64,000 bases of DNA, taken from Oligoflexia bacterium. Its GTDB lineage: Bacteria; Bdellovibrionota; UBA1018; CAIPTA01. Below, in pieces: positions 27,790 through 32,668 of this stretch. Position 1 is the first letter of the stretch, and each line of letters begins with the position of its first letter. The stretch lies in assembly GCA_023954355.1 (NCBI GenBank), contig JAMLID010000003.1:21270-85269 (forward strand). Direction: 5' to 3'. A model generated the notes under the pieces. It had not been told where the DNA came from and did not search any database. It saw only the letters and a program-made list of their open reading frames with translations. A program made the translations under genes and the position numbers.

Positions 27790-27864
27790 AATGAAACTCC
27801 TATATTTTGCATGAATATAGTGGAGAGACTTGCAGCTGAAAAGTCTTTCTTTCATTCTAAAGAG

Positions 27865-28755
27865 ATGAAATTTAAAAATTTTTTCTTTCTTTCTTGTTTA
27901 CTCCCTCTATTCACCTATGCCGCACAGGACTATCCCGAAAATGGAAGCTCTGCGCCAGAAGTTAGCTTAGAAGACTATGTTTCTCCTTTTCCTCTGGGAT
28001 ATTCGATTCCACCAACTCAGCCAGATGGGTGGATTGCGCTACCTCAGGGTCGACCGTTTCCCACACTTGCTCCTGACCCCAGAGATTTAAAAATTGCTCT
28101 TCGAAAAAATAATAAAGGTGAACTTGAAGCTGATATAGGCGGATACCGCTCACTTGCTGGATGGAAGGGATCTATCAAAAACAAAACTACCATCTTACAC
28201 ACGGGTATCGAAGGAACAGCGTACTTCTTATTACGGCAAGAGGGATCAAAATTTCCCCTTCATAGCTCTGATGGAGTAATTGGTTTGTATGGAGAAGCTA
28301 TTCGAGGTTTATGGATGTACCAGCTGCGCTTTACCCATTTATCCGCGCACCTAAGTGACGGAATAACAGCTATTAGACAAAGATTTTCTTATACTAGAGA
28401 AACTCTTTCTCTTAGATTTGCTAGACAATTAGATAGTTTTCGTGTCTACACAGGCTTACATTATCTGGTTCATACAAAACCTGTTCTTCCAAGAGCCTCT
28501 TTGCAGTTAGGATTTTTCTATGTCTCAAAATTTTCTTGGAAAAAAATTCACCCCTACGCCGGTGCTGATCTAAAAATTCGCTCTTCTCAAGAAGGTACAA
28601 ACCTACACGCCATAGCCGGACTTGCGATACACTCTGATGTAGGAGCTCCACTCGTACGCTTTGGACTAAACTATACCAAGGGCCATGATCTTAGAGGTCA
28701 ATTTTACTTTGAGAAAACAGAAAAGTGGTCTTTAGGCTTAGACATGGATCTCTAA
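27865..28755 (+). CDS. DUF1207-like exported/outer-membrane protein
   Basis: Signal peptide from ATG 27865; F.TLAPDPR, RFTHLSAHLSDG motifs; amphipathic beta strands, C-terminal WSLGLDMDL. Confidence 0.7.
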   Translation: MKFKNFFFLSCLLPLFTYAAQDYPENGSSAPEVSLEDYVSPFPLGYSIPPTQPDGWIALPQGRPFPTLAPDPRDLKIALRKNNKGELEADIGGYRSLAGWKGSIKNKTTILHTGIEGTAYFLLRQEGSKFPLHSSDGVIGLYGEAIRGLWMYQLRFTHLSAHLSDGITAIRQRFSYTRETLSLRFARQLDSFRVYTGLHYLVHTKPVLPRASLQLGFFYVSKFSWKKIHPYAGADLKIRSSQEGTNLHAIAGLAIHSDVGAPLVRFGLNYTKGHDLRGQFYFEKTEKWSLGLDMDL

Positions 28756-28801: not shown

Positions 28802-30043
28802 ATGAGTGCAGCTCGATTTTTTCGTCTTTTTTTTCTCTTAATATATGCGCTCACACCCTCTCTAACATACACGGAAAATAGTTACGCTAATCCTACCTCA
28901 TGCCAAGAAGAGTACGCAAATCTCAAAATTGCTCAACAAATAGTAGATACCCTTACCTTTGGTTCAAGAGAGTTCTCCATAGATCGACTAATAGGAAATG
29001 AAAAATTTGCGAAATTTCTTCAAGAGAAAAAAATTGTGGAACTCGATGCTCTTTCTATCAATGAGCAAAAAAAAATATTAGAAGAATATGCTGCGTCTGC
29101 ATTTAGCTCGTATCGCAGCAAAGAGAGCCTAACTAAAATGAGAGCGCTTTCACTTCAAAAGCAATCACGCCTAAGAGGCTCTACTCAAATAAAAGATTTC
29201 GCTAGTGCAAGTCGTATAAATACCAAACGAATTTTAGAAAATCTCAAAGTGCCTGATACGCCAGAAATGATCGAACTAAAAAAAATATTTGAAGAAATAG
29301 AAACTTTTTTCGTTCATCATACTAATTTCGATATCAATGGCCGAAACTTAGAGGCACCTCTTCTTTCTTCTAGGCAATTAGAAGAAATCGGTCTAGGTCG
29401 TGGACTAAATTCACAAAACCACTTTAATAGAGATATCATTCAATCCGACGACAATGTCTTTTTTTTCGTTTCTTTTAAGAAAAAAAGCGTGAATGCATTG
29501 GATATGAACTCTAATGATTGGAAATACGGCACAGAGCGAATTTATCTAGATAAGTCTTTTGCTAGAGAAAACGGCTGGATCTCTTATTTTATGATGTACC
29601 CAGATCAATTCTTATCTTATTTAAGAAAATATCATCCAGAGTTAATTCCAAAATTAGAAAACGCCATAGAAACCAAACTTTCTATTAAACTTTATGATAT
29701 TAATCTTAAAACTGCTTTTGCCAATCTTCGAGCAGACCAATGGAATACACTAAACGAAGCAGAGCCCGAACTAGTTAGCAAGCTTCTTGGAAGCCTACAT
29801 ACCATGGACTTTACCGTAGATGATTTTGAGAAAGTATGGAAAGCACAAGCCCTACACAAGCTTTATGAAATTTTGCAATCTGACCCGAAAGAATTTCAAA
29901 GAATCTTAAGTGAATTTAAATCTAGCGACCCAGAAATCTCTGTACGCCCACTCGAAAAAGACCACCTCATAGACAGCTTTGAAATGAAAATTCCTGTAGC
30001 AATAGAACCGACGAATGTCACATATAAGTCATCTGAAACTTAG
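28802..30043 (+). CDS. Secreted protein with putative OspC/Lart1-like ADP-ribosyltransferase fold
   Basis: Signal peptide; ordered motifs FVHHTN, LLSS..L, N..DNVFFFV, KYG, GWIS, FTVDDF, FEMKIP; fold call from recalled OspC motifs only. Confidence 0.55.
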   Translation: MSAARFFRLFFLLIYALTPSLTYTENSYANPTSCQEEYANLKIAQQIVDTLTFGSREFSIDRLIGNEKFAKFLQEKKIVELDALSINEQKKILEEYAASAFSSYRSKESLTKMRALSLQKQSRLRGSTQIKDFASASRINTKRILENLKVPDTPEMIELKKIFEEIETFFVHHTNFDINGRNLEAPLLSSRQLEEIGLGRGLNSQNHFNRDIIQSDDNVFFFVSFKKKSVNALDMNSNDWKYGTERIYLDKSFARENGWISYFMMYPDQFLSYLRKYHPELIPKLENAIETKLSIKLYDINLKTAFANLRADQWNTLNEAEPELVSKLLGSLHTMDFTVDDFEKVWKAQALHKLYEILQSDPKEFQRILSEFKSSDPEISVRPLEKDHLIDSFEMKIPVAIEPTNVTYKSSET

Positions 30044-30186
30044 TCTAAGTTCTGTAAAGCATGAGCGATGGTATTTTGTCTCTTCACTTGCATCTCATTT
30101 ACCATGTTTTTTGTGCTGGTTCCTAGTTTCCAGCCTACGACCATAATTAGAATTAAATAAAATAGATAAGCTCTTGTTGTTGTCAT
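30040..30186 (-). CDS. Unannotated 48-aa single-TM small protein
   Basis: MTTTRAYLFYLILIMVVGWKLGTSTKNMVNEMQVKRQNTIAHALQNLD; AGGAGG RBS 5 nt upstream; sigma54 motif upstream. Confidence 0.7.
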   Translation of the reverse strand: MTTTRAYLFYLILIMVVGWKLGTSTKNMVNEMQVKRQNTIAHALQNLD

Positions 30187-30406: not shown

Positions 30407-32668
30407 TTAAAATGGTGGGCCAATCATGAATTGAAACTGGCTTCCCTTGCTCTTATCTTCTTCACGACCAATAGGATAACCCCATTCAAAGCGCAATGGA
30501 CCAAGAGGAGAAAACCAACGGAATCCCCATCCCCAATCTTGCCGAACTTTCACTCTATTGAATTTATTGAAAGCGTCTCCAAGATCATAAAAGAGTACAA
30601 ACTTTAAACCCACATCTTTAACTAAAGGATACTCTAACTCAGCCATATAAAAGAATTGGTGAAGACCACCTGTAAGTATCGAGCTGCCTTGAAAGATTGT
30701 TGTTGGTCCAACACTGAAAGATGAATAACCTCTCAAATTATTCGGGCCACCAAGATAAAATCTCTCTGCACTCTGAACATCAACTTTTTTATAATCCCAA
30801 AGAGTGCCCCCCTCTAGCTTTGTTCTAAAAGTAAGATCACCCCAAATTTTTCGATAAAACCTCATATCTAAAACAGTACGAAGAAACTTTCTGTTTCCAC
30901 CCAGACCAGCAAACTCTTCTGAAAGTGCTAGGTAGTGACCATCGGTGGTTTCCATTCTATTATTACGCTTATCTTCTGCTGCCGTAACTGTGATGGCAGA
31001 CTTAGTGCCTTCTTCAAAACTTTTTCTTGATCTAACATAAGGGTCTTCTAGGTCTGGCAATCGCAAACTCTCTAATTGGTAGCCAACCCACAGGCGAGAA
31101 TAATCCCCAATTGGATGACCTAAGTTAATACCAAAGCCTCTTCTAAACTCAACATATCTCCCTGGGTAATCTGTTTTACTATGGGTAAAAGATCCCCCCA
31201 TACTCCATAAAGTATCGAAAGCGTAAGGATCAGTAAAAGAGGTAGAGTATGCTCTATTCTTTTTATCCGCAGAGATTTGCGTTTGAAAACGTAAATCTTG
31301 ACCGCGCCCCATAAAATTCGATTCCGAAACTTGTGCGGTAAAAAAGAATTTCGTTGTAGTTGCATAGCCTGCACCCAACTGAAATTGACCGGTTGGTCTT
31401 TCTTTAACATTAATGATCACATCTAATAAATCAGGTCGCCCCATTGGTGACTTAGTTTGAAACTCTACAGATTCAGGTTCAAAGAAACCGAGCCTCTCTA
31501 CGTTCTCTTTAGAAATTCTCATCCCAGAACCCGAATAAAGCTCTCCTTCACGAATTTTTAATTCTCGACGAATCACCTTATCTCTAGTCTTTGAATTTCC
31601 TTTAATGGTAATTCTTCCGAAATTTACCAAAGAACCTTTTTCAAATTCATAATTTGTAGTTACCAATAACTTTTTATCATCTAACTGAATGTCAGGAACA
31701 ACGTTAACGTTTGCATACCCAAGATCTTGGTATTTTTCTGTTAGCGAAATAATATCCGCATTACGTTTAGAAATAGAAAATACTTCTCCGGTTTTTAACG
31801 TTAATGCGTCGTGAAGCTCTTCTTTGGGAAACAGTAAGTCTCCTCCAAAATCAATTTCACCCATTTTATACTGAGGTCCTTCATCGACCTTAATCGTAAT
31901 AAATACCCATTTTTTATCTTCACTAACAGTAACAATTGGTGGCTCATACCTAAACTTCACATATCCTTCGTTTAGGTACCAATACTGCAAGTACTGAAGA
32001 TCTGTTTTAAAATCTAATTCTTTGAAATTACCACTGCCGGTTGCCCAAGAGAAAAATCCACCCTCAGAGGTATTGCGTAAAATCCTCTTTAGCTGGTCAT
32101 CAGAAAAAGCCTGGTTTCCTAAAAAAGTAACTTTTCTAATTTTTACTTTGTCGTATTCGCGAACTCGAAACAATACTTCTACCATTTCGCCGTCTTTGGC
32201 AGGTCTAGTAGAGTACGTAACCTTTGCTAGATAGAAACCCTTATCTTCATAGTGTTTAGAAAGTTTACGAACAGACTCTCGAGCCAGGTTCTCGTCAAAG
32301 ATATCGTAAGTCTTGATTGCTAAAACATTTTTTAAATCATCCGTAGAAATTTCTTCGTTTCCAAAAAAAACGATTCGATAAATTGCTGGTCGCTCTTTTA
32401 CCGTAAAGCTCAAAGTACCGTTTTGAAAGTTAGCATCGATACCATTAAAGTATCCCATCTTCTGAATGGCTCGAATATCTGCTGCCACTTTTCGCTCATC
32501 TAATTCTGTACCTGACTTTGATTGAATCTTCTCTAGAATTGCTTCTTTTTCGATCTTCTTATTACCAACTATATTAACAGCTTGAATTTTTTCAGCAGCA
32601 TAGAGGTTGGTAGAAAGACCAAGCAATAGAGAAAGAGATAAGTATAGAATAGAATTCGGTAATTTCAT
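30407..32668 (-). CDS. bamA: Outer membrane protein assembly factor BamA
   Basis: POTRA repeats (GNSKTRDKVIRRE), NLRGY, RWFSPLGPLRFEWGYP, terminal F. Confidence 0.97.
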   Translation of the reverse strand: MKLPNSILYLSLSLLLGLSTNLYAAEKIQAVNIVGNKKIEKEAILEKIQSKSGTELDERKVAADIRAIQKMGYFNGIDANFQNGTLSFTVKERPAIYRIVFFGNEEISTDDLKNVLAIKTYDIFDENLARESVRKLSKHYEDKGFYLAKVTYSTRPAKDGEMVEVLFRVREYDKVKIRKVTFLGNQAFSDDQLKRILRNTSEGGFFSWATGSGNFKELDFKTDLQYLQYWYLNEGYVKFRYEPPIVTVSEDKKWVFITIKVDEGPQYKMGEIDFGGDLLFPKEELHDALTLKTGEVFSISKRNADIISLTEKYQDLGYANVNVVPDIQLDDKKLLVTTNYEFEKGSLVNFGRITIKGNSKTRDKVIRRELKIREGELYSGSGMRISKENVERLGFFEPESVEFQTKSPMGRPDLLDVIINVKERPTGQFQLGAGYATTTKFFFTAQVSESNFMGRGQDLRFQTQISADKKNRAYSTSFTDPYAFDTLWSMGGSFTHSKTDYPGRYVEFRRGFGINLGHPIGDYSRLWVGYQLESLRLPDLEDPYVRSRKSFEEGTKSAITVTAAEDKRNNRMETTDGHYLALSEEFAGLGGNRKFLRTVLDMRFYRKIWGDLTFRTKLEGGTLWDYKKVDVQSAERFYLGGPNNLRGYSSFSVGPTTIFQGSSILTGGLHQFFYMAELEYPLVKDVGLKFVLFYDLGDAFNKFNRVKVRQDWGWGFRWFSPLGPLRFEWGYPIGREEDKSKGSQFQFMIGPPF

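Follow-up and report, generated by a model that had tools for sequence, protein, structure and literature searches.

A predicted Sec-exported protein of Bdellovibrionota with the fold of the OspC/CopC ADP-riboxanases, probably an unstudied family of NAD-using enzymes

What is the function of an apparently exported protein that matches no family in the databases and carries, in order, a series of motifs resembling those of a bacterial effector enzyme? This question is raised by P0001, an open reading frame (ORF) of 413 codons plus stop (28802..30043, plus strand, ATG start) in a 64,000-nucleotide stretch of DNA, here called the window, from an Oligoflexia bacterium of the phylum Bdellovibrionota (assembly GCA_023954355.1, contig JAMLID010000003.1, positions 21,270 to 85,269); all features of P0001 given below lie on the same strand. 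An initial, sequence-only reading had taken its product for a Sec-exported protein with an ADP-ribosyltransferase (ART) fold akin to that of OspC and Lart1, using nicotinamide adenine dinucleotide (NAD+) with a different chemistry or target. OspC1, OspC2 and OspC3 of Shigella (PF06128; PDB 7wr3, 7wr4 and 7wr5) are type III secreted arginine ADP-riboxanases. The ORF is as that reading described it, and a check of codon positions found its seven motifs (FFVHHTN, LLSSRQL, NS..DNVFFFV, KYG, GWIS, DFTVDDF and FEMKIP) in the order proposed; the OspC motifs given there for comparison (FRHQSN, IKS, NT..DFVFFGVE, DFG, GYMTLTDH, FNTKDM and LEYHIP) all occur in OspC2 of Shigella flexneri (pCP301). Our analyses partly support the interpretation as a whole. 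P0001 is a single module, distantly homologous to the catalytic domain of the arginine ADP-riboxanases OspC and CopC, and its gene probably encodes an exported member of an unstudied NAD-using enzyme family.

Searches with P0001 itself gave no match in Pfam, NCBIfam or PADLOC and only one in PHROGs, at E = 0.15, and phmmer against the PDB sequences returned noise only (E > 0.2). A word-index homologue search found one relative, and three with the family profile. HMMER, run exhaustively over 1.84 billion cluster representatives, retrieved 145 proteins at E ≤ 1e-3, of which 113 reached E ≤ 1e-10 and 3 reached E ≤ 1e-30; the closest relative shares 38% identity with P0001, and one of the 145, P0134, was rejected as a low-complexity false positive. 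The family profile (A1) was made from an alignment of 65 members, none of which has a meaningful match in Pfam, and the names of family members, where the source supplies any, read 'hypothetical protein'. A look-up in an atlas, used for leads only, pointed to a Planctomycetota-labelled cluster in which 33% of the members carry PF06128 (score 0.91). Separately, one metagenome-derived member, P0018 (613 aa), has a GNAT acetyltransferase domain (PF13302, residues 64-202, E = 7.8e-23) ahead of its OspC-like domain (residues 354-607), a single case that could be a gene-calling fusion.

When the family profile was compared with all PDB sequences, the top two matches were chains of CopC (7wzs_A, E = 1.4e-4; 7xn4_B, 1.8e-4), and the third-ranked match was far weaker (E = 0.11). 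For a comparison of profile with profile, 80 OspC-family proteins were gathered with residues 60-345 of OspC2, all 80 of them carrying PF06128, and 32 were picked for diversity to make an OspC-family alignment (A2). HHalign aligned residues 125-264 of our family with OspC residues 83-231 at 95.2% probability (E = 2.7e-8). Local searches connected the two families in both directions at E ≤ 1e-3: the family profile matched 54 of 81 OspC-family proteins, with a best score of 39.7 bits, and the OspC-family profile matched 28 of 144 family members, with a best score of 27.0 bits. Decoys behaved differently from these targets; none of 81 reversed and 81 shuffled OspC-family sequences was matched by the family profile at E ≤ 1e-3, and the four decoy searches, in which each profile was run against reversed and shuffled target sets, gave no match and no score above 4.4 bits. 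The resemblance of the family to OspC/CopC is thus well above chance. PF06128 itself had no match in P0001 at E ≤ 10 and none among the 65 members at E ≤ 0.01; a match above the gathering score of that model, the mark of a member, was thus not seen in them.

The predicted structure led to the same relatives. An AlphaFold2 model built on the 65-sequence alignment was confident (mean predicted local distance difference test score, pLDDT, 88.4; predicted template-modelling score, pTM, 0.84). Foldseek against the PDB returned six matches at E ≤ 0.001, all of them chains of OspC3 or CopC (2.9e-6 to 5.6e-5), with the seventh match only at E = 0.8, and a viral structure library gave no match at E ≤ 0.001. 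In a VIA-align comparison with 48,161 representative chains, residues 106-413 of the model (29117..30040) superposed on CopC 56-344 and OspC3 60-345, and the best non-helical matches after these were SopF, four DarT entries, scabin and pierisin. Together, the two comparisons confirm the ART fold and place OspC/CopC as the nearest solved structures by a wide margin; as the sequence-only reading had anticipated, the model contains the split beta-sheet NAD-binding core common to solved ARTs, and its predicted catalytic domain is of the OspC type. That reading was also right that the ankyrin domain is missing: P0001 has no Pfam match to ankyrin repeats, the model contains no further domain, and the protein terminates 19 residues past Glu394, leaving no C-terminal ankyrin domain of the OspC kind.

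In order to see which parts of the active site are shared, residues were paired from the HMMER and HHalign alignments, with OspC2/OspC3 numbering except where CopC is named, and conservation was counted over the 65 aligned members, to which the fractions below refer. CopC has a His137-Phe183-Glu325 triad plus Phe207 (PMC9239266). The triad histidine corresponds to His172 in strand 1 (29315..29317; OspC His143, CopC His137), which is His in 60/65 members and Arg in 4. The triad phenylalanine falls in Phe220-Phe221 (29459..29464; OspC Phe188-Phe189, CopC Phe183-Phe184), where position 220 is Phe in 40/65 and Tyr in 23/65 and Phe221 is kept in 64/65, and the second aromatic over the nicotinamide falls in Tyr242-Gly243 (29525..29530; OspC Phe211-Gly212, CopC Phe207-Gly208), with Tyr in 59/65, Phe in 6/65 and Gly243 in all 65. 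The glutamate is represented by Glu394 (63/65) in a beta strand, Glu394-Met-Lys396-Ile-Pro398 (29981..29995), which matches OspC Glu326-x-His328-x-Pro330; Pro398 is present in 61/65 members, and position 396 is Lys in 52/65 and Arg in 6/65. The pairing of Glu394 with Glu326 agrees with the predicted strand (residues 393-398), with a Glu-to-Pro spacing of four residues in both families and with both structural alignments, which end 19 residues past the glutamate in model and target alike. The best local profile path, not significant alone, sets DFTVDDF against FNTKDM and FEMKIPV against LEYHIPR. The family therefore has the His-Phe-Glu triad and the second aromatic, the glutamate being assigned through its strand position, the alignment end-points and this sub-significant local alignment.

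The residues that carry out riboxanation have fared otherwise. In OspC3, Asp231 is reported to activate the substrate arginine for N-delta ADP-ribosylation and Asp177 to drive N-omega deamination (PMC11598138); the CopC mutants E325A, D172A and D230A are described as inactive (PMC9239266). The counterpart of OspC3 Asp177 and CopC Asp172 is Asn209 (29426..29428), which is Asn in 59/65 members and never Asp or Glu, so that this catalytic acid is absent. The segment Ser261-Met265 (SYFMM; 29582..29596), following GWI, was placed against OspC TLTDH by ungapped extrapolation from the point where HHalign stops (Ile260 with Met227), which pairs Ser261 with Thr228, Met264 with Asp231 and Met265 with His232. 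Ser261 is kept in 64/65 members and Met265 in 65/65; position 264 is Val, Ile, Met or Leu in 61/65 and never acidic, and neither position 209 nor position 264 has a conserved acid within two residues in the 65 aligned members. Further pairings are Ser137 with Ser109, Val171 with Arg142, Ser189 with Ser158, Asp217 with Asp185, Ser224 with Glu192 and Gly258-Trp-Ile with Gly225-Tyr-Met. In the DFTVDD motif (29807..29824), Asp341 (63/65) pairs with OspC Asp280 on the sub-significant local path, and Asp336 (60/65) is an acid specific to the family; Asp216 is present in 54/65. The replacement of acidic residues suspected earlier (Glu192 by Ser224, Asp231 by Met264) and the change of ExH to ExK at Lys396 are thus borne out. 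Judged by alignment, then, both catalytic aspartates (OspC3 Asp177/Asp231, CopC Asp172/Asp230) are missing, the Glu-x-His motif of Glu326/His328 reads Glu394-x-Lys396 with no His among the residues listed for its last position, and the protein keeps the NAD-pocket elements and the essential glutamate and has replaced all of the residues linked to arginine riboxanation.

P0001 also differs at its N-terminus. Residues 1-29 (28802..28888) form a predicted Sec signal peptide that starts MSAARFFR, with two Arg, and continues with a hydrophobic run and SYA before Asn30; cleavage would fall between SYA and Asn30. The signal peptide proposed by the sequence-only reading therefore has the features of a Sec-type leader, and a family-wide proxy agrees. 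This proxy, a crude one, looked for a strongly hydrophobic 10-mer within the first 25-35 residues of the 89 family members with a Met start and at least about 100 residues ahead of the His motif, and found it in 64/89, with a small-x-small motif directly past the hydrophobic run in 60 of the 64. A few residues past the leader of P0001 lies its sole cysteine, Cys34 (28901..28903). A cysteine within 30 residues of the hydrophobic run occurs in 58/64 leader-bearing members, with a median of one Cys per protein, and is lipobox-like in only 4/64; this conserved single cysteine might form a disulfide between molecules or serve for attachment. Residues 32-105 (28895..29116) make up a family-specific N-terminal helical region, to which nothing corresponds in the aligned range of OspC3/CopC. 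As for other routes of secretion, none of the secretin-family genes in the genome, which is 94.8% complete, reaches the cut-off for the type III secretin YscC, and TssC was not found in it. A match to T2SSK was set aside as uninformative, the model also firing in 10/14 control genomes.

We consider it slightly more probable than otherwise that P0001 is a Sec-exported, NAD+-dependent transferase with an OspC-like pocket, that its acceptor or chemistry is other than riboxanated arginine, and that it works in or on another cell. The protein would leave the producer's cytoplasm by Sec and bind NAD+ in a pocket made of His172, Phe220/Phe221, Tyr242-Gly243 and Glu394; Glu394 would serve to break the nicotinamide-ribose bond, and ADP-ribose would be passed to an acceptor in or on the other cell. 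Homology, fold and residue pattern are shown by the comparisons above, and from them the use of NAD+ and the transfer are inferred. NAD+ is found inside cells, and with action outside the producer's cytoplasm the likely site would therefore be another cell; whether that cell is prey, a competitor or a host is speculation. Chemistry or acceptor is expected to differ from caspase arginine ADP-riboxanation because both OspC3 aspartate bases are replaced by non-bases (Asn209, and Val/Ile/Met at 264) and the ankyrin docking domain is missing. A bolder form of this reading, which we regard as doubtful, is that the branch is free-standing and independent of calmodulin, is exported by Sec from Bdellovibrionota and released into other cells such as prey, and there performs an NAD+-dependent modification distinct both from riboxanation and from classical arginine ADP-ribosylation, with the N-terminal helical module and the single cysteine taking over the activating or docking roles of calmodulin and ankyrin. 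The fold itself was so far known only from type III effectors of Proteobacteria.

Several points weigh against an exported NAD+-dependent transferase. We know of no NAD+ supply in the producer's periplasm, and OspC3 and CopC require host calmodulin. The leader proxy failed in 25/89 full-length members, which may have mis-called starts or be truly leaderless. The homology is remote: HHalign gave only 8.3% probability for the family profile against OspC2 as a single sequence, which is why the OspC-family profile was needed, P0001 scored 14.9 bits against the latter, and neither that profile nor PF06128, searched in six frames, found anything in this genome at E ≤ 10. The C-terminal halves of the two families gave no significant alignment on their own, so the pairing of Glu394 with Glu326 is sub-significant on sequence alone (P = 0.048 and 0.014). 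From these mixed profile results we conclude that the families are related but far apart and that P0001 is not a PF06128 member. That His172, Phe220/221, Tyr242 and Glu394 line one pocket is likewise a prediction from paired residues, and Asp216 and Asp336, acids of the family's own, could be substitute bases. Finally, CopC H137A is reported without visibly reduced activity and F183A/F207A with little effect (PMC9239266), and conservation of the His and Phe is accordingly weak proof of NAD binding.

Other explanations draw on the same residues. P0001 could simply destroy NAD+ as a glycohydrolase without a macromolecular acceptor, either depleting NAD+ in a target cell or scavenging it outside cells; it has lost the ankyrin domain used for docking and the residues that handle the substrate but keeps the catalytic glutamate and the aromatic pocket, and CopC-calmodulin is itself reported to hydrolyse NAD+ (PMC9239266). 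The roughly 100 conserved residues N-terminal of the core and the surface acids Asp336 and Asp341 suggest a partner or substrate, and we think a pure glycohydrolase unlikely. Somewhat less likely still is an exported protein with no catalytic activity, a pseudoenzyme or a binder of nucleotide or ADP-ribose that keeps the ART scaffold. Such a protein would account for the replacement of five invariant or near-invariant residues of the OspC catalytic site and would sit well with an exported location without NAD+, a setting that speaks against NAD chemistry in the periplasm of the producer. It would not be expected to retain, in 63/65 members, the glutamate whose CopC equivalent is essential (E325A), standing among the invariant Gly243 and Met265 and the near-invariant His172, Phe221, Tyr242 and Ser261 in the pattern of a selected active site.

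Were the protein a true arginine ADP-riboxanase like OspC3 and CopC, the fold and the NAD-pocket residues would be explained at once, and the two bases would be sought among Asp216, Asp336 and Asp341, which the family conserves as described above. Asp341 offers no extra base, since Asp280 is its OspC counterpart; the positions of Asp177 and Asp231 hold Asn and aliphatic residues or Met, with no conserved acid close by, and the OspC-invariant Arg142, Glu192, His232 and His328 are also replaced, all of which makes this reading improbable. An arginine mono-ADP-ribosyltransferase of the Lart1 type can be given almost no credence. The R-S-ExE clade is reported to be marked in Lart1 (Lpg0181) by Arg37, 86-SxS and 135-ExE and to have pierisin- and pertussis-toxin-like relatives (PMC7949102). 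In our family, strand 1 has His in nearly all members and Arg in only 4, the catalytic motif is ExK rather than ExE, and the matches to OspC3/CopC are four times stronger. The motif test refutes assignment to the Lart1-type family, and of the earlier 'OspC/Lart1-like' label the OspC/CopC part stands, on profiles and fold, and the Lart1 part does not, the R-S-ExE motifs being absent. An exported NAD+-dependent transferase with an acceptor or chemistry of its own remains the reading we prefer.

The genomic context of the gene was analyzed with gene names read from the translations. The ART gene is single-copy in its genome and lies on the plus strand between a DUF1207 gene (27811..28755, plus strand, Pfam E = 2.7e-10), which has an N-terminal leader and stands divergently between skp and bamA, and the 3' end of bamA (30407..32668, minus strand), which faces it, in an otherwise minus-strand block of bamA and skp-lpxD-fabZ-lpxA. 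A blastp comparison of lpxD, skp, DUF1207 and bamA with the loci of relatives found the DUF1207 gene in 8/8 genomes of the same family and 1/2 of the same order. In all nine of these relatives DUF1207 leads to bamA with no ART gene between them, lpxD and skp precede DUF1207, as here, in the 8 loci that extend far enough, and none of the nine genomes has a match to P0001. The empty junctions indicate that the ART gene is a lineage-specific insertion of a single gene and that DUF1207 marks only its landing site. DUF1207 was therefore rejected as a functional partner: it is found between skp and bamA in 9/9 relatives without the ART gene and adjoins none of the other family loci, and it seems to be an envelope gene, conserved but uncharacterised, of the bamA-skp-lpxD cluster in this lineage. 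Across 20 family loci the only recurring neighbours were those shared by synteny within one genus and a histidine-kinase-like ORF, seen at three loci, so nothing points to an immunity gene or to a dedicated or operon partner.

Converging on the ART gene is an ORF of 48 codons (MTTTRAYLFYLILIMVVGWKLG...; 30040..30186, minus strand) that encodes one hydrophobic helix, has AGGAGG a few bases upstream of its ATG and overlaps the ART stop codon by 4 bases. Searches with tblastn found no similar ORF in the nine relatives' DUF1207 loci or at other family loci; it may have arisen by chance, or it may encode a small membrane protein specific to the strain and brought in with the insertion. Elsewhere, two divergent members, L025 (G110:C26) and L027 (G266:C61), which match the family profile at E = 2.2e-9 and 9.5e-22, have three flanking ORFs in common that occur at no other family locus, and they may form a sub-family with its own conserved neighbourhood; genome G266 carries a second, typical copy (L013).

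The family profile matched 23/401 genomes of the Bdellovibrionota, this one included, in 20/204 genera. Among sampled genomes it matched 0/351 in the phylum of a metagenome-assembled genome (MAG) titled Myxococcota and 0/401 in the phylum of a Nitrosomonas genome. Only two family members bear an organism name, and both come from Bdellovibrionota/Bdellovibrionales MAGs. For LysS of this genome, the two closest sequences (80% and 76% identity) belong to MAGs titled Bdellovibrionales and Oligoflexia, with the next at 57%.

This distribution differs from that of OspC. A BLASTp survey reports OspC homologues across the Proteobacteria, every one of them in a strain that has a type III system; its supplementary tables might list more taxa (PMC9596379). 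No paper combining 'ADP-riboxanase' with 'Bdellovibrio' was found in a full-text literature search, and the papers retrieved with 'Bdellovibrio', 'ADP-ribosyltransferase' and 'prey' had nothing on the subject in their titles and the beginnings of their abstracts. Among the systems nearest in structure, Salmonella SopF (PDB 7dn9), an ARF-activated ADP-ribosyltransferase, fits much less well, with a root-mean-square deviation of 6.3 Å and a Foldseek E of 1.5, which is not significant. The DarT proteins (PDB 7omu, 7yk3, 8baq and 7omv) are cytoplasmic toxins of toxin-antitoxin systems with an adjacent DarG, whereas P0001 has no PADLOC match and no conserved neighbouring gene. Lart1, reported as type IV secreted with glutamate dehydrogenase as its target (PMC7949102), has only the ART superfamily in common with P0001, which fails the R-S-ExE motif test; neither the Lart1 paper (PMC7949102) nor a survey of Legionella ARTs (PMC12522546) contains the word 'OspC'. 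CopC of Chromobacterium violaceum (PDB 7wzs and 7xn4) is activated by calmodulin and docks caspases through its ankyrin domain, neither of which is evident in P0001, and its Asp172 and Asp230, mutation of which is reported to abolish caspase modification (PMC9239266, PMC11598138), have no acidic counterpart here. Compared with OspC, P0001 and its relatives have Asn for Asp177, Met, Val or Ile for Asp231, Met for His232 and Lys for His328, and vary at the positions of Arg142 and Glu192; there is no ankyrin-repeat domain, and in place of a type III signal there is a Sec leader with an extra N-terminal helical region. What is new, therefore, is that the OspC-like ART fold has a Sec-exported branch of its own, which departs from several of the features that define the OspC family.
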